Origin: Oscillospiraceae bacterium
GTDB lineage: Bacteria; Bacillota; Clostridia; Oscillospirales; Oscillospiraceae
Direction of reading: 5' to 3'
Assembly: GCA_031261745.1 (NCBI GenBank)
Contig: JAISJC010000083.1
Coordinates: 22,772 to 86,771 of the forward strand
Length of the DNA: 64,000 bases
Shown here one piece after another: positions 3,247 to 29,197 of the stretch (position 1 is its first letter; each line of letters opens with the position of its first letter). A program made the position numbers and the translations under genes. The notes under the pieces were generated by a model, which was not told the DNA's origin, did no database searches, and saw only the letters and a program-made list of their open reading frames with translations.

Positions 3247-3255
3247 ATTGTCACC

Positions 3256-3654: not shown

Positions 3655-3655
3655 C

Positions 3656-4183
3656 TCAAATTACATAGGTGCCGCCCATAGCGACAAGACGCGCTTCGGT
3701 AACGAGTAGTTGCCCGTATGTTGTACCGTTCCAAGCACCCCATAACTCCGTTGCCGCCGTCACCGCTTTTGTGTCATATGACACGGAAGCGTCGCCGAGC
3801 GAAGCCGAGGCGACCACGCCGAGAACGGATCCCGTGTTCGCTGCCGCCGCCGCGTTCGGTGAGTTTTCGGCATAGGTTCGCAAATAGAGCGTTGCGTAAT
3901 GGGCAACGAAAAGCCCCATTGCGTAACTCCATTTTTCAAACCACCTATTCTCTTGAATTGCGGCATTCGCCATCGAAATGAACGAGTCGAGCATCATCTG
4001 AGGGATTAGGCTCTCGCTTGTGTACGTCGGCGGGTCTGTCGGCGGCAGCACTTCCACCTTTTTCGTGAACTGTGGAAACGCCTCCGAGAACATTTCGGCG
4101 GTATATTCTGTCGTGTTCGGGCTAACGAGATTTGACGCGTTAGCCCGTAACCCGAGAAACTGTGAAAGGCTGATTCCGCTCAT
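3656..4183 (-). CDS. Head-tail connector protein (DUF4054-like)
   Basis: 175 aa, second gene downstream of the capsid gene. N-terminal pattern ...EMFSEAFPQFT... resembles DUF4054. Confidence 0.5.
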   Translation of the reverse strand: MSGISLSQFLGLRANASNLVSPNTTEYTAEMFSEAFPQFTKKVEVLPPTDPPTYTSESLIPQMMLDSFISMANAAIQENRWFEKWSYAMGLFVAHYATLYLRTYAENSPNAAAAANTGSVLGVVASASLGDASVSYDTKAVTAATELWGAWNGTTYGQLLVTEARLVAMGGTYVI

Positions 4184-4203
4184 AACGCACTACCCCTTAT
4201 TCT

Positions 4204-4659
4204 TTACTCGGCATTTGCCGCGAGAACAGTTTGTTCCGCTTCCTTTTCGGCTGCCGCTTTGAGTTCGGCGGTCTGGGCAACATCAAACCCTTTTTCGGCG
4301 GCTTCTTGCTCTGCGGCGATGCGGGCAGCTTCGACAGCCTCGTCAACCTTGCGTTTGAGTTCGGCGACTTTTTCGGCCGCTTCCTTTTCGGCTGCCGCTT
4401 TGAGTTCGGCGGCTTCGAGGTCATCGTCTTTCGTTGACACGATTGAGGTGATGTTGCCCGCCGTGCAGTGCGCCTTGAAATACCAGTGGCTCTGCACCCA
4501 CTTCGGAACGGAGCCGATATACCCGTTGGGGATTTCAAACTTCGTTTTTCCGTCGTCGGCAACAATCACAATGTTCTGTCTGCTCGTAATGAACAGATTA
4601 CCGTTTCCGGCAGAAACGGCGACCGCAGGAGCGGTCGCCGCCTTTTTTTGATTAGACAT
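4204..4659 (-). CDS. Ala/Glu/Lys-rich repeat protein (possible head decoration or scaffold accessory)
   Basis: 151 aa. C-terminal AELKAAAEKEA repeats are encoded by a perfect 36-bp direct repeat. Lies directly downstream of the capsid gene. Confidence 0.5.
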   Translation of the reverse strand: MSNQKKAATAPAVAVSAGNGNLFITSRQNIVIVADDGKTKFEIPNGYIGSVPKWVQSHWYFKAHCTAGNITSIVSTKDDDLEAAELKAAAEKEAAEKVAELKRKVDEAVEAARIAAEQEAAEKGFDVAQTAELKAAAEKEAEQTVLAANAE

Positions 4660-4668
4660 ATTGCCCTC

Positions 4669-5679
4669 CTAAATCCCGTCGCGGTAAGCGATGGGCTGCG
4701 TATAGAACACCTCAACCTCGGAGATGTTCGCCGCGTAGATGGTATCATACGCGAACGCGTCCGTGTTCGGAGACGTCATCGAGCGCATAAGCGGCACGAG
4801 TTCATCAAGGCCGAGGAACTTGCGGTCGTTCCGATACACGACAAGGCGGTCGGTGTTCGCCGCGCCGGTTCCTTTGCAGTACGCAGTCGCGCCGATGAAC
4901 AGGTCTGAACCGTTTTTCCGTGCGATGTTGTTCTCCTCAAGGAAAGTCAGAATCGTTTTCTCGGCAAGCGGGGAAACTTTCTGAGTTGCGATATAGCTAT
5001 ACTGCTCATAAGGCATAAGCGCGTGGTTTGGAATCGCGGAGCGGTCATATGCAGATGCCGCCCACGCAGCCACAATCGCGCTGTTGATGTCCGCGAGTAT
5101 CTCGTCAGCGGTCTTGCCCTCGAATTGAGTGCTACCGCTGTCGCCCGTCGCGGCATTTTGCGCGGTTACAAACGGATTGTTGAGCAAGCCGGACGTGCCG
5201 TAGCGGGCGAACCCGACGTACACGTTGGCGTCCATATGCTTATCGTAAGCGATACGAATGCCGTCCGTGAGCAAGTCCTCAAGCGAACGCCCCGCGAAGT
5301 TCTCGCGCTGTGCATCAATCCAACCCACGCGGAGCGCGATGTTGAATATATGCGCCTTGTAGATGTCGTCTTCAAGGTTCGCTTGTACGACGGGGATCCC
5401 GTTCGCGCCGCCCGCAGAGATAACGCCGTCGTTGGAGCCGCCCGTAACGCCAAAGTCGATGTTCATAGCGTTGATGTTTTTCGCCCAACCGCCGCCGACC
5501 TTGATGTCGATGTCACGCTGATAGGTTGTGCTGTTGAGCGGCTCACGAATAAGCGTGTCGCGTTTTGCGAGTTCGCTCGTCAGAAAAGCCTGTCCCGAGC
5601 GGATTGCCGAATCACGCATACTGATAGGGCGGCCTTTCTGCCCGGCAACTCCCGCGTCGTATGTACCAACATTTTTCAT
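4669..5679 (-). CDS. Major capsid protein (DUF2184-like)
   Basis: ATG 5679 preceded by SD AAGGAGGA; 336 aa. Follows a DUF2213-type scaffold gene, as DUF2184 capsid genes do. Confidence 0.8.
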   Translation of the reverse strand: MKNVGTYDAGVAGQKGRPISMRDSAIRSGQAFLTSELAKRDTLIREPLNSTTYQRDIDIKVGGGWAKNINAMNIDFGVTGGSNDGVISAGGANGIPVVQANLEDDIYKAHIFNIALRVGWIDAQRENFAGRSLEDLLTDGIRIAYDKHMDANVYVGFARYGTSGLLNNPFVTAQNAATGDSGSTQFEGKTADEILADINSAIVAAWAASAYDRSAIPNHALMPYEQYSYIATQKVSPLAEKTILTFLEENNIARKNGSDLFIGATAYCKGTGAANTDRLVVYRNDRKFLGLDELVPLMRSMTSPNTDAFAYDTIYAANISEVEVFYTQPIAYRDGI

Positions 5680-5692
5680 TTCAATATCCTCC

Positions 5693-6199
5693 TTATGCGT
5701 TCGCGCGGGTGAGCAGCACAAGCTCCGCGACACCATTGGCATCGGGTTTGCCGCCCCACTGCGCGTTGGGAATCAAGACGTTGTTTGCGCCGTCCGCTGT
5801 CGCTTCAAAATCACCGATCTTTTTCGGTGTGTTATCGGTGATGCGGACATAGACCTTGCCGTTCGGTACGGCATCGAGAAGCGGATTAAGCACGTTAATG
5901 CTTCCGCGCTGAAAAACCGACACGGCTTCGTTCGGCGCGTACTCGCCGCCGCCGTTTTGGTCGAGATAGTCGGTCGCAGAGGTCACTTCAAACGACGCAA
6001 TTCCCTCGAACAGGGCGGCTGTCAGCGTCGCGTCGGCACTTTTCACGCCGCCTGTGGCTCCGTCAGCGAGGAGCGCGGTGCCGAACTTGATTTTTGTTGT
6101 CCCCGTATTGGGGCGGCTCTGAATAATCATATCCGGCTGCCGCGCGTAGCTTCCGGCGAAACCGTTATTCATTACGAGACCGATGACTTTTCCGGGCAT
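5693..6199 (-). CDS. Structural protein between scaffold and capsid genes (possible decoration protein)
   Basis: ATG 6199 preceded by SD GGAGGAGAA; 168 aa, begins MPGKVIGLVMNNGFAG. The upstream part of the tracked ORF overlaps the scaffold gene and is Arg-rich. Confidence 0.5.
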   Translation of the reverse strand: MPGKVIGLVMNNGFAGSYARQPDMIIQSRPNTGTTKIKFGTALLADGATGGVKSADATLTAALFEGIASFEVTSATDYLDQNGGGEYAPNEAVSVFQRGSINVLNPLLDAVPNGKVYVRITDNTPKKIGDFEATADGANNVLIPNAQWGGKPDANGVAELVLLTRANA

Positions 6200-6200
6200 A

Positions 6201-7472
6201 TTATTTCTCCTCCTTTTTCTTGTGCGGATTATGCTTGTCATAAGCCGCCTGTTGCGCTTCAATGATTGCCGATTCGGACATCTCACCGGAATCGCGCACG
6301 TTCTTTTTCGCCGTGCTGTGCGTGGTTTCAAGGACACCCGCATACGACGAATTGAGCGACTTTCTGATTGACGCAGAGAGTGCGTCCGTCACGCGCTTGC
6401 GCTCTTTCGGGTCTGCGATTGCCGCGATCGCCGGACGCGCATTTTTGATTATGCGAATCGCCGCGTCTGCGGTAATCTCCGAGACCTCGTCATCATCGAG
6501 TGCGCTTGCCGACACGGTGACGGCTTCCTCTTGCTCGGTCGGGCTTTCGCCGTCGTCGCCCGTTTCGAGTTCACCGAGCAACTTGTCGATAGCGTCCTCT
6601 TTCTGCTCGGCCGCCGCTTCCTCAACGGCAGCGGGCAGTTCGTCGGGCGTTTTTGCCGCCGACAGCGCGTCAATCTTTGCTGTCAACGCGGTGATTGCTC
6701 CGAGGAGAGCATCAAGTGCGCCGCCCTTGGCGGGGTCGCAGTCCTTGACTTCCTCTTTTGCGGCGGGCGCGGGTGCTGTTTCCTCTGCGGTGAGTTTCTC
6801 GACCGTTTCGGCAGCGTCTTGAACAAGCTCGTCGATTTCGTCCGGCTTTGCATCGCGGACGCTTTTCGCAAAAATGTTCAAGAACCCGCTTGTCTTCGTG
6901 GGTTTACTCATTTTTCGTGTTCTCCTTTCGATTTTTGTTGGTAGTTCGTCTTTTATTGAAACACTTTTACCCGCGCGTCCGTTATCAACGAGCGCGACGT
7001 GGTTACCGCGTATCTCAATCTGTGAAAATGTGCCGTCCTCGTTCAGTGTGTACTGCGCCGTGTACCCCGAGGACACCTCGCGTTTTCCCTCCTCAATGTC
7101 GGAGATGGCGCGGGGATCCGTAAAGAACAGATCCGCAACAATTTTGTCGCTGTCCTTATCCGCGCCGCGCCGCACATTCTGAACGTGTCCGACCGCATAT
7201 GTGGCATAGTTCAGCGGCTCAACATCTTTCGGTGGGTGTTCGTTTGTTGTGGGTTTCCCCTCAAACGAAGCAAGAACGGCGAGGTCAAAAATATTGTCGC
7301 CACGAATGACCGTGACGACTTCGTTCGGGGAATCCTCTAACCCGATTTCGCCCCGCAGATATTCCATAGTGCCTGTGCGCCCAATCGGTACGTTCTTGCA
7401 AATGAGAAATCCCTCGGGAGTCTTAACCATATTCGGCGATATGCGGTCGCCATAATAAGCAAGTTGTGCCAT
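6201..7472 (-). CDS. XkdF-like DUF2213 prohead scaffold/protease protein
   Basis: 423 aa. N-terminus MAQLAYYGDRISPNMVKTPEGFLICKNVPIGRTGTMEY is typical of DUF2213/XkdF. The C-terminal half is Ala/Glu-rich low-complexity sequence. Confidence 0.7.
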   Translation of the reverse strand: MAQLAYYGDRISPNMVKTPEGFLICKNVPIGRTGTMEYLRGEIGLEDSPNEVVTVIRGDNIFDLAVLASFEGKPTTNEHPPKDVEPLNYATYAVGHVQNVRRGADKDSDKIVADLFFTDPRAISDIEEGKREVSSGYTAQYTLNEDGTFSQIEIRGNHVALVDNGRAGKSVSIKDELPTKIERRTRKMSKPTKTSGFLNIFAKSVRDAKPDEIDELVQDAAETVEKLTAEETAPAPAAKEEVKDCDPAKGGALDALLGAITALTAKIDALSAAKTPDELPAAVEEAAAEQKEDAIDKLLGELETGDDGESPTEQEEAVTVSASALDDDEVSEITADAAIRIIKNARPAIAAIADPKERKRVTDALSASIRKSLNSSYAGVLETTHSTAKKNVRDSGEMSESAIIEAQQAAYDKHNPHKKKEEK

Positions 7473-8155
7473 CAGCTCACCTCAACCCAACTTAGCACTC
7501 CGTCAACAGCTTCGAGCCTAACCGTCCCGTTCAGCGGTGGAGTCGGAATAACAAGCCCCTCCTTGTCGGTCATTGCCACAAAATGCTCTGAAAGGTCGGC
7601 TCTCCAAACTGTCGGCGTTTTGTTGGAGCGTATCCGCGTCTGATTCTGCGTGTCTCCGAATTTCTCCGTGTACGGTGCGCCCTCCTCTCCGTCCGGCAGC
7701 GTTATTTGACCGCCTATTGCAAGAAAGTCGGGGTATTGCTCCCCTGCGAGTGCGAGACCGAGTTCAAAATCGCCCGTGTCGGGGTTGGCCTCCGGTATCT
7801 CGATGGAGTAGTCGCCCGCTGCCGCGTCGTAAAAGGTTAAGACGTTTCCTTGCAGCGGCACTGTCTTACCCGCGCCGTTGACGATTGTTGCGTCGCCACC
7901 CCCACCGCTCGATCCTGTTTTCCTCGTCCATACGGAGCCGTCCGACTTCAAATACTTCGTGGGTTCAACAGGGGCTTTCCCCCACAAAGCGGCTCGTCCC
8001 ACATCGGGCGGTAGCACCTGCGTACCGTTATCGTCGCTCTCGTTGGGAATGCTGTCCCAAATCGAGCCGTCCGGCGCAAGGTATTTAAGGGGCGCGAGGT
8101 TTATAGCGGCGTACAGTTTCGCCCGACCCCCGTCGGGAGGTAATATCTGTCCCAT
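7472..8155 (-). CDS. Hypothetical head-module protein with N-terminal tandem repeat
   Basis: 227 aa, with two copies of LPPD(G/V)GRA..L......P.KYL..DGS.W. ATGA-type overlap with the downstream gene. Confidence 0.5.
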   Translation of the reverse strand: MGQILPPDGGRAKLYAAINLAPLKYLAPDGSIWDSIPNESDDNGTQVLPPDVGRAALWGKAPVEPTKYLKSDGSVWTRKTGSSGGGGDATIVNGAGKTVPLQGNVLTFYDAAAGDYSIEIPEANPDTGDFELGLALAGEQYPDFLAIGGQITLPDGEEGAPYTEKFGDTQNQTRIRSNKTPTVWRADLSEHFVAMTDKEGLVIPTPPLNGTVRLEAVDGVLSWVEVS

Positions 8156-9791: not shown

Positions 9792-12113
9792 TTACCCAAT
9801 TTTCCACCCCGTCAGCAACCACGTCTTTTTTTCTCCGTGTTCGTCAAGCGATAGAACCGCCTCGTACCCGTCCTTTTCGACGTGAATGGTTTTCTTAGCT
9901 GCGACGTACTTCACGATGTTTCCATCAACAACTGCATCAATGACTTTCGGCACGGTTTCGGCACCGTGCCTTTCCTCAATATGTACCAGGCCTTTCTTTT
10001 TATCGCCTTGAATAAGCGTTATGTCGTTTGTTCCCCCATACCGCTCCAAGTCGTCGCGGAGATTGCTAATTGTTACTTCGCTTTCTCCGGCTGACAGACG
10101 CTCAATCGCGTTCTCAACTTGCTTGTGCTTTTCGGCACTGCTACTTTCGCCGTTTTCGCCGCTGCCCGACCCGCCGCCGCTTCCGAACTTTCCATCTCCA
10201 TCGCGCGGTTGGTCGGGGTCGAAGTCATCGGTAACGCGTGTCGTTTCGCCATCACGCGCAAGGTAGTCAGCAAGCAAGCCGAGCGACTCCTTGAACGGCG
10301 GGAATAGGTCAATCGTTTTTAGCGCAGACGGCTCCACAAGTGTAAAGTCGCTCATCTCGCCGTCCGTGGCTATTTCTCCACGGTTCTTTCCGCATTTTGT
10401 GCAAAGAAAGATATGCGGAGAGCCGTATTCCTCGGAAAGTGTGTTCAGCTGATTCAGCGGCACAAGGTTTTCGGCAAGCAAGCCGAATTCCTCTTGCAAT
10501 TCACGCCGAGCGGCTTGCTCCGGCGTTTCTCCCAAGTCTATGTGACCGCCCGCGCTTGCCCACCCCTGCCCGTCGCTACGCTTGGCAATAAGGAATTTGC
10601 CGTCTTTCATCACGATTATTCCGACAGTCCCGGGTGCAAGGCTCGTGTCCTGTGCCATACTCGGCAAGTCCGCGTCTATATCACCGCCAACGCCCGCGCC
10701 GCCCATCAGACCCATCATAGGGTCGTTCATTGATTGTAGGTCTTTTGCCCATACGCCCGCGCCCTCGGCGATCATTTCGTCCGTGATGCTTGCGTACATT
10801 CCGCTTTCGTCGCTGAGGGCTTTGAGTTCTTTCAGAAACGCCTCTTGCGTCATTCCGTTGGCGTTGAAAACCTCAATCAGCGTCATCGACTTTTTGTGCG
10901 CGATTTCGGCTTTCTCACTTTCGGTCGGATTGCGGACATTGTCGTAAACGTAATCAATATCGTCGGGCAGAACGCCCCACGCTGACAGCGCAAGGATCGG
11001 GAGCAGCTGCTCAACGACCGGTGACAACTCAATTTCGCGGCGTTCCTCGGCGTAGTCGTAATAGTTCTGCAAGTCCGACTCGCCTGTCGCGTTCATTCCG
11101 GCGGGACTTCTCCCGAATAACTTTGTCGCGGGGATATGCGATGCTCCCGTAATATCCATCATCAGCGCATTGTAAACATCGGCAAGCCCGGCGAACGTAT
11201 ACTGATACTGTTGAAGCGTGTCGCCCTTGTTGAGTATCCGCGTTCCGAGGTTTGATTCAAGAACGCTTATCGCTTGCATCTGATTCCAAAAACGCCGTTG
11301 AACCTCGCCGCCGCCAATCGCAAACATCTGGTCAATGTTGTCCATTGTGAGAACGGTTTGGTTCGCCTTGAACGTGAGCGACGCGATATTTGCAGATACA
11401 TTGTCGTGCTTTACGATTTCCTCGTAAATCGCTTCGATTTCGCTTTGCCCCCAATGCAGCTCCGCAACACGCTCTACCCACGGCAATTCGCGCCCGATAA
11501 AGCGGATGCAGCGAGAGTGATGCGCTTTGTACTGAACCGACCCGGCTTCATTCCGAATCTCGTAGAATTCGGGGTACCCGTAGTTCGGATCGTTTATATC
11601 GCTCACAAGCGACATACTCGGGTATGCACCATTCCAACGGTCAACGATATACAAGCCGCGAAAGCTGTCCGGCATTATCTCGTCGAGGTTCAGCGGCTTT
11701 TCGAGGTCGTCTTGTCCGTCAATCAAAATCAACCCGATTGCGCCACCATAAAGCCGCCCCCACTTCATACCCTCGAGGACGGACTTGCGGAGACGTGTTG
11801 TCCGCATTAGCTTGTTGAGTTTACTGAGCATATCCGGCGCGACATTGGACGTGACCTTGAACCACTTTTTTGTGATATCCTCGGGGATTGTGTTAATCAC
11901 ATTTTGAACAATCCAATTCCCGCGATAAAGGCTATTGAGCAGTTGATAATTCTGCGTCAGCCGCATAAGCGGGTACTCGGTCGCTTGCATAAGGTTTTGT
12001 GTGCCAACGCCGAGCCGCGCGGCGGGGTTGCTGAACGCATCTGATGTTCGCGCCAAGTGAGTGGACGTGGTAGGCGTTCCGCGCGACACCGCTTTTAATT
12101 TTACTGTTGCCAC
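9792..12113 (-). CDS. Portal protein (DUF1073-like) fused to a NUDIX hydrolase domain and a C-terminal nuclease-like module
   Basis: 773 aa, placed right after terL. The portal-like region covers aa 1-~480. A perfect NUDIX box GGHIDLGETPEQAARRELQEEFGL sits at aa 522-545. This is followed by a DQPRDGDGKF linker plus Gly/Ser spacer, then a terminal module with GLVHIEERHG. Confidence 0.85.
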   Translation of the reverse strand: MATVKLKAVSRGTPTTSTHLARTSDAFSNPAARLGVGTQNLMQATEYPLMRLTQNYQLLNSLYRGNWIVQNVINTIPEDITKKWFKVTSNVAPDMLSKLNKLMRTTRLRKSVLEGMKWGRLYGGAIGLILIDGQDDLEKPLNLDEIMPDSFRGLYIVDRWNGAYPSMSLVSDINDPNYGYPEFYEIRNEAGSVQYKAHHSRCIRFIGRELPWVERVAELHWGQSEIEAIYEEIVKHDNVSANIASLTFKANQTVLTMDNIDQMFAIGGGEVQRRFWNQMQAISVLESNLGTRILNKGDTLQQYQYTFAGLADVYNALMMDITGASHIPATKLFGRSPAGMNATGESDLQNYYDYAEERREIELSPVVEQLLPILALSAWGVLPDDIDYVYDNVRNPTESEKAEIAHKKSMTLIEVFNANGMTQEAFLKELKALSDESGMYASITDEMIAEGAGVWAKDLQSMNDPMMGLMGGAGVGGDIDADLPSMAQDTSLAPGTVGIIVMKDGKFLIAKRSDGQGWASAGGHIDLGETPEQAARRELQEEFGLLAENLVPLNQLNTLSEEYGSPHIFLCTKCGKNRGEIATDGEMSDFTLVEPSALKTIDLFPPFKESLGLLADYLARDGETTRVTDDFDPDQPRDGDGKFGSGGGSGSGENGESSSAEKHKQVENAIERLSAGESEVTISNLRDDLERYGGTNDITLIQGDKKKGLVHIEERHGAETVPKVIDAVVDGNIVKYVAAKKTIHVEKDGYEAVLSLDEHGEKKTWLLTGWKIG

Positions 12114-12120
12114 AGGGAAA

Positions 12121-13416
12121 TCACCCTACTTTCTGCCGTTCTTCTTTTCGCTCCTCGAAACCTATGCGCCACTTCGGCAACTTGGTAAAAACGAAATAAC
12201 GGAGCGCGTCGGCTCCGTGGTCGTTTTCTTTAATCGGTTTATCCTCGCCCTTTTGGGACGCTTTCTTATCCCACGCATAGGAGCGCAGTTCGCCGATAAG
12301 GCCCGCGCACCGTTCCCGATGCACGCGAATTTTCTTTTTCATAAACATATTGGACGTTGCGCGGATCCCGTCGTTCACCGCGTTGTCCGCTTGCGTAACG
12401 AACATTAACCTTGTCAGCAGTTCCGCAATGAAACTCGCTGCGGAGGGGTCAACGACGACCTCGCAGAGGTTATCCCCCATAAAGGTAACCATATCTGCGC
12501 CGTACTCCCCATCCGTCTTTTGAGCGCGGGGCGCACGTTTCGCTTCGTCACTTTGGCTGTCCCACCGATATTCGTTGTCAACCCATATTGTGTCGCCGTC
12601 ATCGTAAATATCGAGAAAAACGCACGGGTTTGTAGTGCCATAGTCAACCGCGATCGTGCGCTGCGATATGAGTTCAAGATTGTGCGGCCGCTCCGCGTCG
12701 TCGTAGATATTCGTTTCCGAAAAGGAATCGTAAATCACGCCCTCGGCGACGACACGTTCCCCGAGTATGTATCTGCGGTAGAAAACGCCGGTGTACTGCT
12801 TTTTCAGTTCCTCTTTGCGCTCCTCGGGAATTGCGAGATTGTCGTCAAGCGTAAAGAACCACTGCCGATACCCGGGCAGTTTCTCATTGAGGTATCTGTC
12901 CGTGTATTCCCTATAAATCCAGTGGTTAGGGTTATCGGGGTTGAGTGTCCATATGTTCTTGCGATCAACCGACGCAAAGGAGCGTTTGAACGCTTCCTCA
13001 ACGAACGACTGCGGCTGCAAATTGACCTCGTCGGCGTACCAACCGCCGACTGTTGCACCGCGCAAGGAGTTAAAGGAGCGTTCCGTATTCGCTCCGAAAC
13101 AATAGCATATCTTATCCTTGCCGCGCCCTGCGTGAACTATGAGCTGTCGAGTGTCGCGGCTCGTGATGTACTCAGCGCGACGACCGAGAACCGAAAGCAA
13201 TCCGTAATCGCCCGAAATGACATTGCGGTAAAGCGACGCGATTGTATTGCCCGACATAATAAAGAACTTCTCGGGGCTGTTGGTGATATAGTTTATCCAC
13301 GCCAACTCCGAGGCTACGGTTTTGCCGGAGCGAACCGCGCCCTCGTAAACGGTCAAGTACCCGCAGTTCGCTATGCTGTTGATTGCCTTTTGTGTCAACG
13401 GTTTAACTATCCCCAT
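12121..13416 (-). CDS. terL: Terminase large subunit (PBSX XtmB-like)
   Basis: 431 aa with P-loop-like GAVRSGKT. Overlaps the terS stop by 14 nt and is followed by the portal gene. Confidence 0.9.
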   Translation of the reverse strand: MGIVKPLTQKAINSIANCGYLTVYEGAVRSGKTVASELAWINYITNSPEKFFIMSGNTIASLYRNVISGDYGLLSVLGRRAEYITSRDTRQLIVHAGRGKDKICYCFGANTERSFNSLRGATVGGWYADEVNLQPQSFVEEAFKRSFASVDRKNIWTLNPDNPNHWIYREYTDRYLNEKLPGYRQWFFTLDDNLAIPEERKEELKKQYTGVFYRRYILGERVVAEGVIYDSFSETNIYDDAERPHNLELISQRTIAVDYGTTNPCVFLDIYDDGDTIWVDNEYRWDSQSDEAKRAPRAQKTDGEYGADMVTFMGDNLCEVVVDPSAASFIAELLTRLMFVTQADNAVNDGIRATSNMFMKKKIRVHRERCAGLIGELRSYAWDKKASQKGEDKPIKENDHGADALRYFVFTKLPKWRIGFEERKEERQKVG

Positions 13417-14359
13417 CGGTTTCGTCCTTTTTCACACCCGAAACATCGGCGATAACCTGCGCGAACTCCGAAAGCAAGCCGTCGCTGTCCTCAATGTCCC
13501 CGCCATACTTTTTCGTTTCGTGTTCGTGTTTCTCCTGTTGCATTTTGAGTTGAGCAGCGTCATAGTCGATTTTGTGCCTATCAAGCGGATTGACGAGGAA
13601 GTACCGTTCTAAGAAGTCGAGCGACTTATTGCGGTCAGCGAGTTTGATTTTTACGCCGCTGTCGCTTTCGGTTATCTCGCTTATGAGCTGCCCGTCTACA
13701 TCTGCGCTGCTCTTAATGGTGACTTCGTTGACGATTCGAGTAACAGGCACCATCGCGCCAGTGTCGGGCCGCTCCATCATAACGACGTGTCCGTTGTACA
13801 CTTTCGGCGTTTTATGTGAGCCGAAGTCCACGAAGTCCGTGATGTCGGAGAACGCAACCCTCATATGGTACTCGACGAGTTCAGCCGCGTCAAAGGTTAT
13901 GCGGTTTCTGACTTCGTCGCTCATTCGCTGAAGTAAGGCTTTAATTTCGGGTTTTTTCAAGAGTTCGCTTGCCATTGAGTACGCGCTTTTCGGTGAGTAT
14001 CCCGCTCGAATTGCCGCTTGCGTTCCGTTCTTATTGCGGAAATAATAATAACAGAATTGTCGCTGCTTTTCGTTGAGTCCGTCATCGTCGAGTGCTTCGT
14101 TAGCAGCCACCGCAATGTATTCCTCAACGGACGGTGTTTCTTTTTTTGGAACGCTCCGCACAGGTATCGGAGCGTTCCGTTTGTTTTTTGGAACGCTCCG
14201 CTCGTTTTTTTTTGCCCAATTATCTTTGTTTTTCCACGCTCTGATGGTTGATTCGGGGAGTTGAAGCGTTCCCGCTATATCGCAGAGTTTTGCCGTTCCT
14301 TTTGATTGTTCCCACATTATTCGGGCTTTTTCTCGCTTTGGATCTCTTGCCCTTGGCAT
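13403..14359 (-). CDS. terS: Terminase small subunit
   Basis: ATG 14359 preceded by SD GAGGGGTGG. Terminase_2-type segment NEKQRQFCYYYF...AAIRAGYSPKSA, plus an N-terminal HTH-like region. Confidence 0.8.
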   Translation of the reverse strand: MPRARDPKREKARIMWEQSKGTAKLCDIAGTLQLPESTIRAWKNKDNWAKKNERSVPKNKRNAPIPVRSVPKKETPSVEEYIAVAANEALDDDGLNEKQRQFCYYYFRNKNGTQAAIRAGYSPKSAYSMASELLKKPEIKALLQRMSDEVRNRITFDAAELVEYHMRVAFSDITDFVDFGSHKTPKVYNGHVVMMERPDTGAMVPVTRIVNEVTIKSSADVDGQLISEITESDSGVKIKLADRNKSLDFLERYFLVNPLDRHKIDYDAAQLKMQQEKHEHETKKYGGDIEDSDGLLSEFAQVIADVSGVKKDETDGDS

Positions 14360-14374
14360 TTCGCCACCCCTCAA

Positions 14375-15007
14375 TCAACTTGTACCGATTTGGAGCAGTT
14401 CGCTCCTTGGCAACCGCGCCGTGCCATCGAATGGCGGCTCCCACGTTGCAAATCTGTCATCTTGCGGTACGCGCTTCGCCGTTCCCGCTGATATAGCGTC
14501 CACAGCGTTGCACAGCATTTCTACGCCTATCGGGAATATCTCTGCCCAAAGACGGTGATAATCCCAATCCCGAGCGACAAAGACGGGCGTTTGCGCGAGG
14601 ATGTCCCCGCCGTCCACCTTATCGTCAAGCCAATAGACCGTCGCGCCGGTTATTGCGTCGCACATATCGACCGCCCACCGAACAGCGTCACGCCCTCGGT
14701 GCCGAGGGAGGAGCGACGGGTGAAAACCTATCGCTCCATATTTTGCCGATGATATGGTCTGCGCCGATATGTACCAATGCGAGTGCGCTGAAATAACGAG
14801 TTCGGTGTTTCGTGGTATCTGCGCCGACGTGATGTTCTCGCAGTCGCTTATTACGGGAATTTTCCGCTTCAACGCCGCGCCTGTGATTTTGTCGTAATAT
14901 TTCTCTTGCGGCGGCGGGGCGACTCCGACGATATTGTGACCGCGCTCGAAAAGGTTCACGAGGACAGCGCGACCGAAACTGCGCTGTCCGCATATGAAAA
15001 TGTTCAT
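14375..15007 (-). CDS. Formyltransferase N-domain protein (Fmt/PurN-like, no Fmt C-terminal domain)
   Basis: 210 aa with FHPSLLPRHRGRDAVRWAV and DGGDIL motifs. The usual Asn of the N-x-H motif is Gly (IGFH). ATGA overlap with the upstream gene. Confidence 0.7.
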   Translation of the reverse strand: MNIFICGQRSFGRAVLVNLFERGHNIVGVAPPPQEKYYDKITGAALKRKIPVISDCENITSAQIPRNTELVISAHSHWYISAQTISSAKYGAIGFHPSLLPRHRGRDAVRWAVDMCDAITGATVYWLDDKVDGGDILAQTPVFVARDWDYHRLWAEIFPIGVEMLCNAVDAISAGTAKRVPQDDRFATWEPPFDGTARLPRSELLQIGTS

Positions 15008-16140
15008 ATGCGCTCACCTATGTACTTGAATCCTTGTACCGCTCGGAAGTGTCCTCCATAGCCGAGGTTCATTTTTATATTGCCACGGCTTTTCGTCATA
15101 CTCCGTGCGCTGCGCGTCTTGTTATCTCCATAGAGTATTGCGCTTGTCTGTACCCACCGTTTACTGCGCCGCAGGGCGGCGCACAGCTGAGGGTGCGACG
15201 TGTGAAAGAATGTCGGTATTTTTTTGTTCTTTCTGCCGTTCCCCTCAAGGTGGTATTGGCATACCCATTCGAGAAATCTGACTCCGACTCCCGCGCCCTG
15301 CCACTCCGGCATCGTAACAAGCCGTGTCGCCCTGTACCCGTTCGCGGTGAATAGCGGAGCCACCGCGAGATGACACGCCAACTCTCCGTCCACCGTGCCA
15401 ACAAAATATTCGGCTGCGGGTGGCATCGGGAGGTCTAAATAATAATGCGGCTTAAAGTAGTGCCAATAACTGCCGTCCGTCTTGAAAACCTCAAGCTCAA
15501 TTTTCGGCCTTTGCCGAAGCCGCCCGCGCTCGAATTCTCTTGACTTTGTATCAAATACCCAGTCGGGCTGAACCCAGTCGAGAATATCGTAGTGCGGGGT
15601 AAGCAACACCACCTTTCCGTTTGGATTGGTGCGCCGCCAAGCCTTTTGAAATGCCTGTGAGCCTATGCGGGCAATTTGCCGATCAACGACGCTTGTGAAC
15701 TCGTCAACCACTACCCGTTCGGGCCTGGTGCATATGAGCCGCGCAAGACCTGCGCGGAACTGTTCACCGTTTGACAATACACGAAACGGACGGAGCCACG
15801 CCGGAACATCTCCGAGTCCCACGTTCGCAAGTGCGCCCGTGACCTCGTTAAAATCGCCGTCCGGCGCGATCTCGTCAATTATTGGGCTGTCAGCCGCCCA
15901 ACCCTGCGTGTAATCGTGAATTAAGTTTTCGCCGAATATGACTTTCCCGATTGAGGACTTGCCGGATCCGGACGGCCCGACAACAACTCCAATCTGCCAA
16001 TCTCCCGTGAGGTCAAGTTCCGCTTCGAGGTCAAAATTGCAGCCGCTTTCGGCATTGAAAAGGCTTTTTACCCGCGCGGCGCGGTAACTGTCGAAGTCTG
16101 ATGTGCGGTTATGCACCGCAATCTTTGTCAACTCGCTCAC
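15004..16140 (-). CDS. Soluble ABC-type ATPase fused to a GNAT-like acyltransferase domain
   Basis: GTG 16140 preceded by SD AAGGTGGTGG. ATPase motifs: Walker A GPSGSGKSS, signature-like LSNGEQ, Walker B VVVDEF. GNAT motif A-like RLVTMPEWQGAGVGVRFLEW. Confidence 0.7.
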   Translation of the reverse strand: MSELTKIAVHNRTSDFDSYRAARVKSLFNAESGCNFDLEAELDLTGDWQIGVVVGPSGSGKSSIGKVIFGENLIHDYTQGWAADSPIIDEIAPDGDFNEVTGALANVGLGDVPAWLRPFRVLSNGEQFRAGLARLICTRPERVVVDEFTSVVDRQIARIGSQAFQKAWRRTNPNGKVVLLTPHYDILDWVQPDWVFDTKSREFERGRLRQRPKIELEVFKTDGSYWHYFKPHYYLDLPMPPAAEYFVGTVDGELACHLAVAPLFTANGYRATRLVTMPEWQGAGVGVRFLEWVCQYHLEGNGRKNKKIPTFFHTSHPQLCAALRRSKRWVQTSAILYGDNKTRSARSMTKSRGNIKMNLGYGGHFRAVQGFKYIGERI

Positions 16141-16712
16141 GTCGCCACCACCTTGCAGTTAAGACCCTGCTCGGTAAGGCTCTCGTAAACGCCGCGTTGC
16201 TCGTCCTCATCGGCGCATATGACAATGACCCCGAATTGCTCTTGGTAGTTGAACCCGGATTCTCTGTTCGTTTCTCCGTCGTCATCATCCATATTGTCTG
16301 CATCGGGCAGCATAAACAGCTCGTCGAGTTCCGCTTGCGTGAACCCCGTGAGGCTTGCCAACATCTCATCGGCATCTGCCGCGAGTTCCTCGAGAAGTAC
16401 GCTTAACTTGTCATCGTCCCATTCGCCGGATATTTTGTTGAGGGCAATATTGAGCGACTTCTCCTGTAATTCGTCAATGTCTATGACGCTTACGTCGAAT
16501 TCGTCGATGCCCATATCGCAGAGAACGGTGTACCTTTGATGACCGCCGACGATGTTTCCGGTGCGGCGGTTCCAAACGATCGGCTCCACCATACCGAAAT
16601 GTTCAATCGACCTCTTTATCTGCTCGTATTCCGCATCGCCGGCCGCAAGTGTTTTCCGTGGATTGTATGCGGCGGGGCTGATTTCGGAGGCTTTAACGCG
16701 TATAATTTCCAT
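16137..16712 (-). CDS. ParB/Srx-like N-terminal domain protein with acidic C-terminal tail
   Basis: ATG 16712 preceded by SD GAAGGAGAA; 191 aa with EPIVWNRRTGNIVGGHQRY. First gene of the late operon. Confidence 0.8.
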   Translation of the reverse strand: MEIIRVKASEISPAAYNPRKTLAAGDAEYEQIKRSIEHFGMVEPIVWNRRTGNIVGGHQRYTVLCDMGIDEFDVSVIDIDELQEKSLNIALNKISGEWDDDKLSVLLEELAADADEMLASLTGFTQAELDELFMLPDADNMDDDDGETNRESGFNYQEQFGVIVICADEDEQRGVYESLTEQGLNCKVVAT

Positions 16713-16821: not shown

Positions 16822-16854
16822 CAAAAGAATGCCGCCCCCGGCGAGGGGCGGCAT
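16822..16854 (-). terminator. Intrinsic terminator downstream of the RinA-like gene
   Basis: 10-bp GC-rich stem (ATGCCGCCCC / GGGGCGGCAT, 16829-16854) with a 6-nt loop. On the minus strand it is followed by TTCTTTT. Confidence 0.6.
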
Positions 16855-16934: not shown

Positions 16935-17354
16935 TTATCCCCAGTACATACCAAGATTGGCGGCTACGCTTCTGATGAAATGCCCGTGCCACCGCTCGGC
17001 GGTCTTGTATGATGTCGGGATCTGCATTGCTGCGCCGTTCATCGTGTGCGTCCGTTTCCAGTACATCAAGTCAATGAGTTTGTAACGCGCCTCGCCGTCC
17101 GGCATACGAAGGCAACTCGCAATCGCGTTTGTCACCGCGTCATATTCGCTCTGCTCCCAAGGATCGAGTTCTCGTAATGCGAGGGTTTCTGTTGCGCGTG
17201 GTGTTAAGCCGCCGTTTTTGACACCGAGTCCACCCGATGGCGCGGAAAGCTGCGGTCGATGCAGTTCGTTGTACGCCTCGCGCATTTTCGGATAATTGTA
17301 CAGAACGGTTCGTATGTAAGACCACCACTTAAATCTTGTTTTACCCACTTGCAA
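16935..17354 (-). CDS. Late-gene transcriptional activator, RinA family-like
   Basis: 139 aa with LYNYPKM...YKLIDLMYW...TAERWHGHFIRSVAANLG architecture. Located just upstream of the packaging operon. Confidence 0.65.
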   Translation of the reverse strand: MQVGKTRFKWWSYIRTVLYNYPKMREAYNELHRPQLSAPSGGLGVKNGGLTPRATETLALRELDPWEQSEYDAVTNAIASCLRMPDGEARYKLIDLMYWKRTHTMNGAAMQIPTSYKTAERWHGHFIRSVAANLGMYWG

Positions 17355-19423: not shown

Positions 19424-19783
19424 CTAATACCACTCGCCCACACGGACAATCCAAACCTCGAACCACCCCGGTAAATTCTTTCCGCTATTATCAAGGCGTT
19501 TTTTGCTGCCGAAATCCTCTACAACGTAGCCGCCACGCGGTGTGCCGTCGCCATCTAACCAGTCCGTGCGGACTTGGTACTTGCACCACCCGCTAATAAC
19601 ATCCGCTTCGGAGAGGTGCGCTCCAAGCTCCGGGTTGAGGCATTCGGGCGAGAGGTAATCTTTATCCACAATGAATTTCGGCACCTCCGCTTTATTCGGG
19701 CATAGGTCTTTTCGTATGATGTAAGCGTTTCCGTCGCCATCGTAATCCCAAGCGTTCCACTCAAATTTAGGCTTTCTGCTCAT
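19424..19783 (-). CDS. Hypothetical protein
   Basis: ATG 19783 preceded by SD GGGAGG, with ATGA overlap onto the upstream stop; 119 aa. Confidence 0.45.
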   Translation of the reverse strand: MSRKPKFEWNAWDYDGDGNAYIIRKDLCPNKAEVPKFIVDKDYLSPECLNPELGAHLSEADVISGWCKYQVRTDWLDGDGTPRGGYVVEDFGSKKRLDNSGKNLPGWFEVWIVRVGEWY

Positions 19784-20637
19784 TTTTCTACCTCCCACGG
19801 AAATTCTTGTATCAGCGGTTCGCCCCATATCACCCCGAGCGAGGATTTCATAAAGATTGGTACCAGTTCCCACCTCGCCGCATCGACAATATCCTCGACC
19901 CACCCACGCTGCGGAATTATCTTGTCTTTCCGATTGCCCGTTTCCGCTCCGATTATCAGCCAGTCGAAATAGGTTCTCTCGTAGTTGTCTGTTATCGACT
20001 CGTGCAGAGGTTCAATACTCGCAAAGGCATTTACACTCGGCGTGAGGGAGCCTATTGCGTCGCTCGCACGCTGCGCCGACACCTTATCCGTTATACTCGC
20101 GCCATACCAAAAGTTCTCGTAGCGAGGCAGTAACGCCATCTCGTCAAGGTCTTGGTACCGTCCCGGATTCTTTGTTAAAAACAGGTACCGATGCTGCGGA
20201 GCCGCCGCGCAAGCGTCAAATACGTCTTTTATCCACGAAGTCGGAACCCAACTCCCGAACAGGTCGCACATACTGCCGACAAATATCGTGCGCGGTTCTT
20301 TCCACTTTTGCGGTTCGTCGAGGCGATAGCGGTGGAGCGTCGGCTCAAAGCCGAACGGGTATGGGTCAATTTTGCCGTTTTGCGGGTTGCCGAGCGGCAC
20401 ATCTAACTCCTTTTTCAAGAAAACCTTGTCGGCTTGCTCTTTGGTGAACCTCGTTTCTCGGAGAATGCGACCGCGCGGATCGCTTGCTGTATTCTCGAAA
20501 TACGTCGCTTTCTGCGACAGACACGAACCGCCGAACCGCCGTGCCATACTCCGCGCGTAGCAATACTCGCAGTCGTGGCGGCAACCGGTGACGGGATTCC
20601 AAGAGGCATCAAAAGTTTCAATTTTCGTTTTATTCAT
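19780..20637 (-). CDS. Gp37/Gp68 family protein (DUF5131) with radical-SAM-type CxxxCxxC motif
   Basis: Begins [32 protein letters not shown] overlap with the HNH gene stop. Confidence 0.7.
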
Positions 20638-21146
20638 TGCGCTTTTCCTCCCCACGTCCACGTTTTTCCTTTTGTGTTGTGACCACGAACATTTTTTCGT
20701 AATCTTCCCTTGCTGTCACGGCATTCAATACGTTGACCGCATCCGCAAGCGCAAAGAACTAACTCACGAGATAGCTTGCGAACTTTTTGATATTGAACTA
20801 ACCCCGTAGCCATTGCCGATTTCTGCTCCGATGTCATTTTCGACATATGCAAGCGTTTGTGTTCAGAGTTTCCGAGCATTTCAAGGTTTTCAATCCGATT
20901 ATCCGTTTTATCTCCGTTGATGTGGTGGACGTGTTCATCTTTTGTGAGAGGTCTCCCTAAATGGTTAGCCATTACCAAACGATGTTCAAAGACATAACCG
21001 CCCTTGCCGCTTTTATTAAATTTTGCCGCAGGGTATGTCGGCGCGTGTACCAATACATATCCCTGCTTTATATGAACCTTTTTTCGCGTAGGTGTGGTTT
21101 CCCACGGCGCGCTCGAATCGCGCCAGTCAATCTTTGTCTTGTTCAT
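20634..21146 (-). CDS. HNH endonuclease
   Basis: 170 aa with [26 protein letters not shown]. Confidence 0.8.
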
Positions 21147-26587: not shown

Positions 26588-26759
26588 TTTGCCCTCCCTT
26601 TTTGTAGAGGTTCTCTAACACCTTCAAGCATAGTTGCAGAGCCTCCGTGCGCGTGAACCCCTGCGCGAGAAATGCTTTCATATAGGCTCCGAGTACTTCG
26701 CTAACGACTCCGATACCGTCAAGGATCCCTCTGATTTTCCCGTTTTCGTAGTCCGTCAT
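26559..26759 (-). CDS. Hypothetical small protein
   Basis: 66 aa ORF with a 4-nt overlap onto the upstream methylase ORF. Confidence 0.4.
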   Translation of the reverse strand: MTDYENGKIRGILDGIGVVSEVLGAYMKAFLAQGFTRTEALQLCLKVLENLYKKGGQNENRPNPYD

Positions 26760-27328
26760 CCCAACATCTCCCTAAATATCGCTTCGAGTATGTCCACGAC
26801 TATGGAATTTCCCGCTTGCTTGTAGAGCTGCGAATTGCTGTTGACCGCCGCTGCCTTGTCGAAGTCCTCGTCCAAAAAGCCCATAAGTCGCCACGTTTCT
26901 CGCGGGGTGAGTTTGCGTATTCGCAATGGCGGTTCGATTACCACATTGTCCTTTTGCACAGTCGTCACCGCGTTACTCGTGCCGCCCGGCTTAATCTCTA
27001 ACATCTGCTGCGTCGGTTCACCCGCGTTACGGCTTGTCGGGTCGTCGGGGTTGCGCCCGCGAATCGCGCCAATCGTCGGCTCCGCAACAAAGTTGTTGTT
27101 TTGCCACTTGCCGCCCGCCGTCAGCGTTGGACTTTGCTCGTAATTGACGCTCCCCGCGTTGAAGCCGTGCGGGCGGTTTATGATAACGGGTTCGACAATT
27201 TTGATTTCTTGATTGCCGCCGCCCTGTGTATGTATGGTTGGAGAAATATAATCGGCATCGTAAACCCGGCGGGATTGCTCTATCATTTTTGAATACCCCC
27301 CCCCGTTAGCATTCCGACACATCGGCAC
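26756..27328 (-). CDS. C5-MTase C-terminal part (TRD motifs, motifs IX and X)
   Basis: Motifs ISPTIHTQGGG, SPTLTAGG, RKLTPRETWRLMGF, GNSIVV. Start is GTG 27328 or ATG 27322, overlapping the middle frame by 23 nt. Confidence 0.65.
   Translation of the reverse strand: MPMCRNANGGGYSKMIEQSRRVYDADYISPTIHTQGGGNQEIKIVEPVIINRPHGFNAGSVNYEQSPTLTAGGKWQNNNFVAEPTIGAIRGRNPDDPTSRNAGEPTQQMLEIKPGGTSNAVTTVQKDNVVIEPPLRIRKLTPRETWRLMGFLDEDFDKAAAVNSNSQLYKQAGNSIVVDILEAIFREMLG
27296..27304 (-). repeat. Homopolymeric G9 tract inside the C-terminal MTase ORF
   Basis: Counted directly: C at 27296-27304, read as Gly-Gly-Gly. Confidence 0.95.
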
Positions 27329-28261: not shown

Positions 28262-28262
28262 A

Positions 28263-29098: not shown

Positions 29099-29197
29099 AA
29101 GGGGCGGCGGGAATTGAACCCGCTCTTCCGGCACTAATCACGGCGTGCATTGAAGCTGCCGTTTATCTCCGACGCTCTTCCTTTGAGCTACGCCCCC
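29099..29197 (-). tRNA. Aberrant tRNA-like gene: canonical acceptor, D and T arms, but a 45-nt extended helix in place of the anticodon arm
   Basis: Hand fold of the minus strand, 5' to 3'. Acceptor GGGGGCG, then TA, then D-arm GCTC-AAAGGAA-GAGC. A 45-nt imperfect hairpin tipped by CUUCAAU follows, then AAGA. T-arm is GCGGG-TTCAATT-CCCGC and the 3' acceptor strand is CGCCCCT. No CCA is encoded. Confidence 0.5.

Follow-up and report, generated by a model that had tools for sequence, protein, structure and literature searches.

A prophage of a Clostridia genome makes up the 64,000-nucleotide stretch of Oscillospiraceae DNA analysed here (the window), and ahead of its terminase genes lie three coupled genes that we rate as a putative ParB-linked phage nucleic-acid modification module with a previously undescribed set of enzymes. 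Gene 1 encodes a ParB N-terminal domain (ParB-N) followed by a conserved domain of about 40 amino acids (aa), gene 2 a soluble ABC-type ATPase fused to a GNAT acyltransferase domain, and gene 3 a formyltransferase catalytic domain. It is quite possible, if short of an even chance, that the module modifies phage DNA late, after its replication, by adding N-acyl or N-formyl groups, and that gene 3 supplies a formyl thioester as the donor. The earlier note on this DNA knew of no described phage system with this composition, and a full-text literature search likewise found no published description of the module, although a comparative-genomics study may already have predicted it in silico.

On the minus strand the order is terminator hairpin, gene 1, gene 2, gene 3, terS and terL (Table 1). 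Genes 1 and 2 overlap by GTGA at 16137-16140 and genes 2 and 3 by ATGA at 15004-15007, while the stop codon of gene 3 is followed by a 15-nt spacer, ttgaggggtggcgaa, that holds a ribosome-binding site and leads to the terS ATG at 14359. No second minus-strand terminator-like site was found between the 16829-16854 hairpin and terS, so genes 1-3, terS and terL form one transcription unit. The coordinates, motifs, overlaps and 15-nt gap were thus all as the earlier note gave them, and its proposal that the trio is expressed with terS and terL agrees with the translational coupling and with the lack of an intervening terminator-like site. It had also placed a RinA-like activator and a terminator upstream; the hairpin, with its 11-bp stem, bears out the second, but the RinA-like label is weak, the activator-like gene having a PHROG 248 match at E = 1.8e-4 and no Pfam match. 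Genes 1-3 are real genes and not chance open reading frames (ORFs), because an identical gene order was seen in 164 loci from viral and bacterial contigs. Used as a seed, the window terL picked out homologues that follow the module in related loci. Elsewhere the prophage encodes RecT, an SbcC-like protein, RusA, a replication initiator, an HNH nuclease, an N6/N4 methyltransferase and a split C5-methyltransferase.

Table 1. Features of the module and its surroundings in the window, and of related loci (rows with an L number give positions in that locus)
Feature	Position	Strand	Description
Gene 1	ATG 16712, TGA stop 16137-16139	-	191 aa; contains EPIVWNRRTGNIVGGHQRY
Gene 1 residues 1-133	16314..16712	-	ParB/Srx N-terminal (NTP-binding type) domain, GGHQR at Box II position
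Gene 1 residues 134-151	16260..16313	-	acidic, little-conserved linker LPDADNMDDDDGETNRES
Gene 1 residues 152-191 and stop	16137..16259	-	conserved ~40-aa domain, PHROG 28816 3.7e-11
Gene 2	GTG 16140, TGA stop 15004-15006	-	378 aa; GPSGSGKSS, LSNGEQ, VVVDEF, RLVTMPEWQGAGVGVRFLEW
Gene 2 residues 1-205	15526..16140	-	soluble ABC-type ATPase domain, Pfam ABC_tran 32.5 bits (cut-off 25)
Gene 2 residues 206-378 and stop	15004..15525	-	GNAT-fold acyl-CoA N-acyltransferase domain (by predicted fold)
Gene 3	14375..15007 (ATG 15007, TGA stop 14375-14377)	-	210 aa; IGFHPSLLPRHRG, DGGDIL; stand-alone formyltransferase catalytic domain of 10-formyl-THF-dehydrogenase N-domain type, Pfam Formyl_trans_N 68.9 bits (cut-off 26.1)
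terS	13403..14359	-	small terminase; Pfam Terminase_2 1.5e-37, Phage_terminase 2.7e-17
terL	12121..13416	-	large terminase ORF with translation; overlaps end of terS
Intrinsic-terminator-like hairpin	16829..16854	-	11-bp stem, 8 G-C pairs, T-run; between activator-like gene and gene 1
Activator-like gene	16935..17354	-	upstream of terminator; PHROG 248 'transcriptional activator'
DUF5131 / 'radical SAM mobile pair protein A'-like gene	19780-20661	-	~3 kb upstream of the trio
Streptococcus pyogenes prophage 315.4 (L252)	3004-6826		ParB-N / ABC / GNAT (separate small gene) / ASCH / small protein / terL; likewise MismyG (L253), Javan141 (L004), Oenococcus (L166)
SPL/PA0069-type radical SAM neighbours	L006 4755-5462; L122 7494-8564; L151 7889-8932
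Enterococcus phage 9184 (L254)	3537-4978		ABC and GNAT genes between DNA polymerase and deoxyguanosine kinase genes
Streptococcus phage Javan630 (L251)	2848-5236		SAM synthetase, then ParB-adenine-methyltransferase fusion, then terL shortly after

The N-terminal half of gene 2 belongs to the ABC ATPase superfamily. Across 107 homologues Walker A (G55-S63, GPSGSGKS), the signature (S123 and G125, LSNGE), Walker B with its catalytic Glu (D146/E147, VVVDEF), the D-loop (D153, SVVD) and the H-loop (H183) are invariant, as is the N-terminal helix S18-N29. An AlphaFold2 model of the whole protein (predicted local distance difference test, pLDDT, 87.4; predicted template-modelling score, pTM, 0.80) had ABC nucleotide-binding domains as its best Foldseek matches, through this N-terminal half. 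The earlier note had read the gene as an ABC-type ATPase fused to a GNAT-like segment and lacking a membrane partner; both points hold, and no permease is encoded in the operon.

The C-terminal domain is a member of the GNAT superfamily by its predicted fold and coenzyme A (CoA) motif. A sequence search with this domain alone against the PDB gave nothing significant; it was the fold search that revealed the GNAT. Residues 206-378 modelled alone by AlphaFold2 reached a pLDDT of 85.9, and all of the top 50 PDB fold matches were GNAT acyltransferases (probability 1.0, template-modelling score 0.5-0.68), including RimI, Naa60, NatE, HP0935, SpeG, and the streptothricin and histidine acetyltransferases. 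The 50 best viral fold matches, from BFVD, were likewise GNATs. In the CoA-pyrophosphate motif (Q281-G-A-G-V-G286), none of the 107 homologues departs from Q281, G282 or G284, and at least 90% keep A283 and G286; H257, R270, R273, H316, H364, R366 and the C-terminal strand GYGGHFRAVQGFKYIG are also invariant. An acyl-CoA GNAT at this end of the protein, which the earlier note had made one of the points on which its proposal could fail, is thus what the fold matches and the conserved Q281-x-x-G-x-G indicate. The window protein scores 16 bits against the Pfam GNAT model (cut-off 27), and several homologues exceed their cut-offs (P0373, 34.6 vs 20.7; P0388, 31.1 vs 27; P0280, 27.1 vs 27). The domain carries a basic disordered loop (residues 338-361) and, averaged over the 107 homologues, has an isoelectric point (pI) of 10.4 and a net charge of +15, against a pI of 5.3 for the ABC domain. 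A protein identical to gene 2 is recorded from an Oscillospiraceae metagenome-assembled genome. Over its full length gene 2 matches PHROG 11143 (1.1e-151), and homologues P0152, P0160, P0167 and P0237 bear the IMG COG-style name 'ABC-type ATPase with predicted acetyltransferase domain'. Hint/LAGLIDADG inteins were seen inside the ABC domain of family members P0388 and P0338.

Gene 3 had been described as an Fmt-like formyltransferase N-domain without the Fmt C-terminal domain. The domain assignment stands, with a Pfam score well above cut-off (Table 1) and a PHROG 9240 match of 1.1e-57, and so does the missing C-domain: the Fmt C-terminal tRNA-binding domain was sought and is absent, the protein ending at residue 210. 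The Fmt likeness, however, gives way to another. By sequence comparison the nearest solved relative of gene 3 is the N-domain of 10-formyl-tetrahydrofolate dehydrogenase (FDH; tetrahydrofolate, THF), which the single sequence matched at 6.9e-25 and a family profile at 9.5e-46 (159 bits), whereas the best Fmt structures gave 1.8e-12 and 1.2e-28 (103 bits), respectively; ArnA, HypX/HoxX and PurN structures scored lower than both. Gene 3 retains the folate motif HPSLLPRHRG and a triad of His96, Ser98 and Asp132. H96, D132 and HPS-LP--RG are invariant in 115 of 115 homologues, and Ser98 was kept in every homologue examined. The earlier note had remarked that Gly replaces the Asn of the N-x-H motif. 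This is correct but not peculiar to gene 3: the position that is Asn in Fmt and PurN is Gly, Ile or Val in the gene 3 family, never Asn, and the FDH N-domain, which shares the His-Ser-Asp triad, has Ile there. Membership in Fmt, PurN or ArnA was rejected, gene 3 lacking the Fmt C-domain and the catalytic Asn and falling below every curated cut-off (Fmt TIGR00460, 79.6 bits, E = 2.2e-22, cut-off 201.5; PurN, 49.9 against 150.1; ArnA, 58 against 777). FDH passes a formyl group from 10-formyl-THF to a 4'-phosphopantetheine thiol, and the N-domain of its relative HypX is proposed to formylate CoA (PMC6802093, PMC8748788). No carrier domain is encoded near gene 3.

That gene 1 has a ParB/Srx-type domain, as first noted, is supported by a PHROG 620 match of 5.8e-48, with a Pfam ParB_N score of 23.9 bits lying slightly below the cut-off of 26.3; its GGHQR aligns with GERRL of Spo0J (4umk), a single Arg being retained. 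From these comparisons its nearest kin are the ParB-methyltransferase fusions and not partition proteins. Gene 1 matches PHROG 498 (ParB-methyltransferase) at 1.8e-42 and PADLOC MTase_II at 3e-44, and in a tblastn search of 50,697 phage records the best matches to residues 1-133 were the N-termini of DNA methyltransferases, at 45-58% identity, the annotation being methyltransferase or methylase in 29 of the 45 best rows. Within its 191 aa there is no helix-turn-helix (HTH) and no ParB C-terminal dimerisation domain, and no ParA gene adjoins it. A chromosome or plasmid partition ParB was considered and rejected, the N-domain alone matching (residues 2-129 of the Noc model, 35 bits vs a cut-off of 315). 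The protein is very acidic (pI 4.1). What had been called its acidic tail is in part an acidic linker, but the terminal 40 residues or so are a separate conserved domain (Table 1). Its pattern, Y-x-x-Q-[YF]-G-V-I-V-I-C-x-D-E-x-x-Q-...-Y-x-x-L-...-G-...-K-V-V-x-[VT], probably corresponds to a beta-alpha-beta fold. The domain is always C-terminal in its protein, just before or overlapping the start of the ABC-GNAT, and we read it as a putative adaptor or subunit coupling to gene 2.

The gene 2 family is large and phage-borne. At the level of 90%-identity clusters, 7,405 of 8,000 scored candidates matched; at 50% identity, 489 clusters matched with E <= 1e-30. At least 574 loci were confirmed in IMG/VR among the 600 pattern matches listed, and for GTDB species genomes the confirmed share was 381 of 420. 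The family occurs in 61 GenBank phage records vs 3 of 72,556 plasmids. Host groups include Clostridia, Akkermansia, Bacteroidota, Planctomycetota, Spirochaetota, Chloroflexota, Alphaproteobacteria and Actinomycetota, and the Clostridia, Burkholderia, Gordonia and Porphyromonas phage versions of the ABC-GNAT are 56-63% identical to one another.

The anatomy of the module was analysed in the 164 loci, with denominators restricted to those having room on the relevant side. The 40-aa domain lies directly upstream of the ABC-GNAT in 162 of the 164. It is fused to a ParB-N in 56 of 152 loci; where ParB-N is missing, the domain is a separate protein of 45-75 aa, such as phiE255 gp28 or the 'acr candidate' of Porphyromonas phages. 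A formyltransferase follows the ABC-GNAT in 128 of 143 loci, and where it does not, a protein of about 70 aa and then terS come after an ABC-GNAT that is still 72-76% identical to gene 2 of the window. Half of the loci with room on both sides (66/132) lack ParB and have the formyltransferase. The obligatory unit is therefore the 40-aa domain plus the ABC-GNAT, with ParB-N and the formyltransferase as frequent add-ons; the trio does co-occur in relatives in the shared order, but it is not, as a trio, obligatory. The formyltransferase itself comes in two forms, one of about 207 aa (56 of 62 with ParB) and one of about 150-160 aa that lacks the alpha1-beta2 segment (70 of 77 without ParB). In P0280, P0301 and P0340 the ParB-N, 40-aa domain, ABC and GNAT are joined in one polypeptide. 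The C-terminal extensions of the longer homologues P0300, P0351 and P0373 contain no recognisable domain. One metagenomic protein, P0384 (856 aa), has the ABC-GNAT in frame with a large-terminase homologue of about 515 aa (E = 1e-9 to Gordonia and Pseudoalteromonas phage terminases), which could be a genuine fusion or a gene-calling artefact.

The place of the module in the phage genome varies with its composition. A terL lies within 4 kb downstream in 50 of 65 loci with ParB vs 13 of 99 without (p = 8e-17, relatedness ignored), and in Gordonia phages genes 1-3 directly precede the sole annotated terminase gene. ParB-less versions are found in Mu-like elements, at the end of the tail operon in phiE255 and after the head genes, beside a transposition gene, in a Bacteroides element (L122), and in many Bacteroidota prophages the module is at or near the contig or prophage end. 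An alignment-based scan found 80 other loci with relatives of the window terS, and none of their 135 upstream ORFs matches genes 1-3; the module is therefore an accessory cassette. The Pfam content upstream of these 80 terS genes is mixed, with sigma-like regulators, SSB, helicases, and one each of DUF4417, Lar and HNH. A single-protein scan with terS for ParB-methyltransferases filling the slot of the module found nothing.

A more distant subfamily (about 33% identity) lies just before terminase genes with a ParB-like gene immediately upstream. Its members include Streptococcus 315.4, phiNIH1.1, MismyG and Javan141, Lactococcus P335, Oenococcus phages, Pasteurella Pmp13 and Leptospira LE3/LE4, and several of them encode ABC and GNAT separately. 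The slot of the formyltransferase is taken by an ASCH-domain gene in the members from Streptococcus and Oenococcus (Table 1). The ASCH protein YqfB hydrolyses N4-acylcytosines (PMC6972931). Enterococcus phage 9184 has its ABC and GNAT genes among genes of DNA synthesis (Table 1); the product of its ORF024 (276 aa), after the ABC gene, is annotated 'DNA polymerase' and matches a GNAT-like viral model (BFVD A0A7L8ZJV7, E = 8e-8), so this label is probably, on the strength of the predicted fold, a misannotation. An SPL/PA0069-type radical SAM gene adjoins the module in 26 of the 164 loci, before the ParB gene or after the formyltransferase, and may be a fourth, optional component. In Streptococcus phage Javan630 an S-adenosylmethionine (SAM) synthetase precedes a ParB-methyltransferase fusion (Table 1), an arrangement of cofactor supplier and ParB-guided modifier before the terminase that would, by analogy, follow the same logic as the module.

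Under the proposed DNA modification, a small N-acyl group (acetyl and/or formyl) would be put on bases of the phage's own DNA before or during packaging. The 40-aa domain would dock onto the ABC-GNAT, its constant partner, and the fused ParB-N, in phages that express the module with the terminase, may be an optional factor that activates the enzyme or loads it onto DNA awaiting packaging. On ATP binding the two ABC domains would close as a dimer, and the ATP cycle would be mechanical, clamping or opening the DNA to bring an exocyclic amine into the active site. The basic GNAT domain would bind the nucleic acid and transfer the acyl group from acyl-CoA to that amine, for which N4 of cytosine is our best guess. 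Like the FDH N-domain and HypX, gene 3 would take a formyl group from 10-formyl-THF and load it onto a pantetheine thiol (CoA), giving a local supply of formyl-CoA for the GNAT. Making formyl-CoA (or formyl-pantetheine) is the most economical role for gene 3, because an FDH-type enzyme here stands beside a CoA-dependent transferase, and such a donor supplier would parallel the SAM synthetase that accompanies the ParB-methyltransferase in Javan630. In the roughly 10% of loci without gene 3 the donor would be acetyl-CoA, and because of these loci the GNAT must also accept a ubiquitous donor, presumably that one. The purpose, we infer, would be to evade restriction or other defences. A bolder and rather doubtful version is that this is the first enzymatic N-formylation or N-acylation of DNA bases (for example to N4-formyl- or N4-acetyl-deoxycytidine), by an ABC-GNAT loaded by ParB or by the mini-adaptor and using formyl-CoA from gene 3.

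The link to DNA, which the earlier note had drawn from the position of the ParB-like gene, is strengthened by the likely kinship of ParB-N with the N-termini of ParB-DNA-methyltransferases (45-58% identity; MTase_II 3e-44); the acyl or formyl chemistry stays conjectural. A DNA thymine dioxygenase requires a phage ParB for activity, and that ParB also lacks a DNA-binding domain (PMC13229309). By analogy, the phiE255 position, the neighbours in Enterococcus 9184, the SPL-type radical SAM gene and the basic GNAT would also point to DNA. The mom gene of Mu presumably occupies the place that matches the site of the module at the end of the phiE255 tail operon. The replacement of the formyltransferase by an ASCH protein hints at N4-acylcytosine; this hint is weak because the phage ASCH proteins carry the general G-x-K-x-x-E-x-R motif rather than the Thr variant of YqfB.

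Several points besides the ASCH motif weigh against such a modification of DNA. The module is known here from sequences and predicted structures, from which its chemistry and substrate are inferred. The nearest folds of the GNAT domain acetylate proteins or small molecules (RimI, Naa60, SpeG) and are not TmcA, Mom was not among its 50 best BFVD matches, and phage GNATs can target host proteins, as AcrVA5 does. N-formyl and N-acyl bases are hydrolytically labile, and we know of no report of them in phage DNA. Gene 3 cannot be the sole donor source, because 15 of 143 loci lack it although their ABC-GNAT is close to that of the window (72-76% identity). ParB-N need not contact DNA itself, since gene 1 is acidic and has no HTH. 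The presence of ParB tracks phage lineage and terL proximity (50/65 vs 13/99), and a packaging role could account for this too.

Other substrates have to be weighed against DNA. An ABC-GNAT that acylates or formylates a protein, either a host defence or nucleoid protein (as anti-defence) or a phage packaging or head protein, with ParB and the small domain as regulator or scaffold, would fit the best PDB folds, which are protein N-acetyltransferases (RimI, Naa60, NatE, HP0935), the 'acr candidate' label of the small upstream gene in Porphyromonas phages and the fusion of P0384 to a TerL homologue; the anti-CRISPR GNAT AcrVA5 offers a precedent. We nevertheless think it improbable: a net charge of +15 better suits a polyanion, the ParB-N is of methyltransferase-fusion type, ASCH and SPL-type radical SAM genes nearby suggest a nucleic-acid substrate, and 56-63% identity across phyla speaks against a fast-evolving host-protein target. 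Quite unlikely is an RNA target, in which the GNAT would acylate a tRNA base or aminoacyl-tRNA (as TmcA or TacT/AtaT do) and gene 3 would formylate aminoacyl-tRNA, so reprogramming late translation. Fmt is among the relatives of gene 3 (TIGR00460, 2.2e-22), ATPase plus GNAT is the logic of TmcA, ASCH was first proposed as RNA-binding, and YqfB acts on N4-acetylcytidine (ac4C) from RNA turnover. However, gene 3 lacks the Fmt tRNA-binding domain, scores 79.6 vs 201.5 bits and is nearer to FDH, the Pfam scan shows no TmcA-type helicase or tRNA-binding domain, and ParB-N and the genomic positions tie the module to DNA functions. The earlier note had pointed to a tRNA or tRNA-like RNA at 29.1-29.4 kb, and the tRNA alternative finds little support: ARAGORN, run on 60 related loci, called tRNA genes within 6 kb in just 7, including three for tRNA-Met. 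In L085 a tRNA-Met (CAT) gene, at 7725-7800, does lie between a shortened formyltransferase gene and terS, in an Oscillospiraceae metagenome-assembled genome whose gene 2 is 85% identical. The window gene itself (29099-29197, minus strand) is 12 kb from the trio, scores 47 bits against Rfam tRNA, was not called by ARAGORN, and has an aberrant anticodon arm with a 37-nt hairpin-forming insert in place of the 9-nt anticodon region; it could be an intron-containing tRNA or a decoy.

A small-molecule substrate is distinctly unlikely. The pair would then be a moron or anti-defence system acylating or formylating a metabolite, polyamine, antibiotic or nucleotide immune signal, which would suit the SpeG, streptothricin and histidine acetyltransferases among the fold matches and the location at the end of many Bacteroidota prophages, a usual moron site. 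It leaves unexplained the ABC ATPase, the ParB fusions, the basic GNAT surface and the presence in lytic Leptospira LE3/LE4, and no defence or anti-defence families were matched beyond generic ABC similarity: the PADLOC models gave weak ABC matches to gene 2 (mad3, 3.2e-8 over 40 residues; AriA, 0.012) and none to gene 3. Still less probable is a packaging accessory, in which ParB-N and ABC would clamp DNA or organise the pac site for the terminase, the transferase domains being regulatory or vestigial. The proximity of ParB versions to terL (50/65 vs 13/99 within 4 kb, p = 8e-17), the Gordonia gene order and the ABC-GNAT::TerL fusion P0384 would all suit it. Yet neither GNAT nor formyltransferase varies in its catalytic and cofactor residues, 66 of the 132 loci with room on both sides lack ParB but keep the formyltransferase, terL is absent from the 4 kb downstream in most loci without ParB (L122 and phiE255, for example), the window already has a bona fide terS, and none of the 80 other related-terS loci has the module, which places it outside the packaging machine. 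Finally, many database records make gene 2 an ABC transporter ATP-binding subunit, with source names such as 'ABC transporter ATP-binding protein' and 'EcfA2' and with the Pfam ABC_tran match behind them. We give this hardly any credence and reject the annotation: neither the operon nor the related phage loci contain a permease gene, the ATPase is fused to a GNAT, the family is phage-restricted (61 phage records vs 3/72,556 plasmids), and the best NCBIfam match, FtsE, reaches 36.5 bits vs a cut-off of 264.85.

The module is very common and well conserved, in S. pyogenes 315.4, phiNIH1.1, L. lactis P335, phiE255 and many SEA-PHAGES Gordonia phages, with no function assigned, and it is open to testing in cultured phage-host pairs. 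Known ParB-linked or GNAT-based DNA modification amounts to a few cases (ParB-methyltransferase fusions, ParB-dependent thymine dioxygenases and Mom). If the module modifies DNA, acyl or formyl marks would join phage DNA chemistry, ABC ATPases and an FDH-type formyltransferase (through a formyl-CoA relay) would gain a new role, and the marks could account for phage resistance to restriction or to other DNA-sensing defences. Phages of eight or more bacterial phyla would then carry a chemically new mark, which, being labile, might escape sequencing, standard nucleoside analyses and mass-spectrometry work-ups that use heat or alkali. Should the substrate prove to be a protein or RNA, the co-expression of a terminase with a conserved ATP-dependent acyltransferase would still be new to phage biology.

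Two further features of the prophage were observed. The portal-type ORF at 9792-12113 (minus strand, 773 aa) has a perfect Nudix box, GGHIDLGETPEQAARRELQEEFGL, in its C-terminal third, and this segment matches NudI and MutT structures (E = 5e-8), which suggests a portal or head protein fused to a Nudix hydrolase. The C5-type DNA methyltransferase is split into ORFs 26756-27328 and 27521-28372 (both minus strand), about 190 nt apart, which match PHROG 116 positions 206-390 and 424-490; this may reflect a pseudogene, a frameshift or an intervening element.

Parts of the module have been catalogued before. PHROG 11143 and 'ABC-type ATPase with predicted acetyltransferase domain', to which gene 2 belongs, are families in name only, without function, partner set or mechanism. 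Similarly, phiE255 gp28-30 were listed without function (PMC2920897), gp29 being an ABC-GNAT family member noted in 2010, and genes 12-13 of Leptospira LE3/LE4 are merely listed, without function, in the literature. The closest systems in design are the ParB-N::DNA methyltransferase fusions (PHROG 498, MTase_II), which share the ParB-N subtype of gene 1 and are likewise sited just upstream of terminase genes, as in Javan630; in these fusions and in the ParB-dependent thymine dioxygenases (PMC13229309), ParB partners a DNA-modifying enzyme. In gene 1, however, the ParB-N carries a 40-aa adaptor in place of the methyltransferase, and ParB is dispensable in most module loci. The enzyme is an ABC-GNAT with a folate enzyme, which would transfer acyl or formyl groups where those systems methylate or oxidise.

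The formyltransferase shares its catalytic fold and folate motif with Fmt, PurN and ArnA, and shares the triad and HPSLLPRHRG with the N-domains of FDH (ALDH1L1), its closest solved relative, and HypX. It differs from these in standing alone (about 210 aa, or about 150-160 aa in Bacteroidota phages), without the second subdomain of FDH, a carrier domain, or an ALDH or crotonase partner. For the use of ATP, TmcA/NAT10 provides a mechanistic analogy, in which an NTPase is joined to a GNAT that acylates the exocyclic amine of a nucleic-acid base. The earlier note had drawn this parallel, which is apt for the pairing of ATPase and GNAT but not for the class of ATPase: TmcA has a helicase-type (RecD-like) ATPase, GNAT_acetyltr_2 and a tRNA-binding domain, whereas the ATPase of gene 2 is ABC-type. 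Membership in the TmcA/NAT10 family was rejected on this ground and for want of GNAT_acetyltr_2 or tRNA-binding Pfam matches. Mom membership was also set aside, no Mom appearing among the 50 best BFVD fold matches, and Mom is kept as an analogy. Mom of phage Mu has a GNAT fold that binds acetyl-CoA, is expressed late, acts in anti-restriction and has a basic C-terminus proposed to bind DNA (PMC7261163). The module resembles it in the GNAT fold, the basic region and, in the Mu-like phiE255, the position at the end of a late operon, while Mom has neither an ATPase nor a formyltransferase partner and uses an iron-dependent chemistry that is not acylation. In kind, then, the module would seem to resemble the ParB-associated DNA-modification cassettes of phages and Mom.

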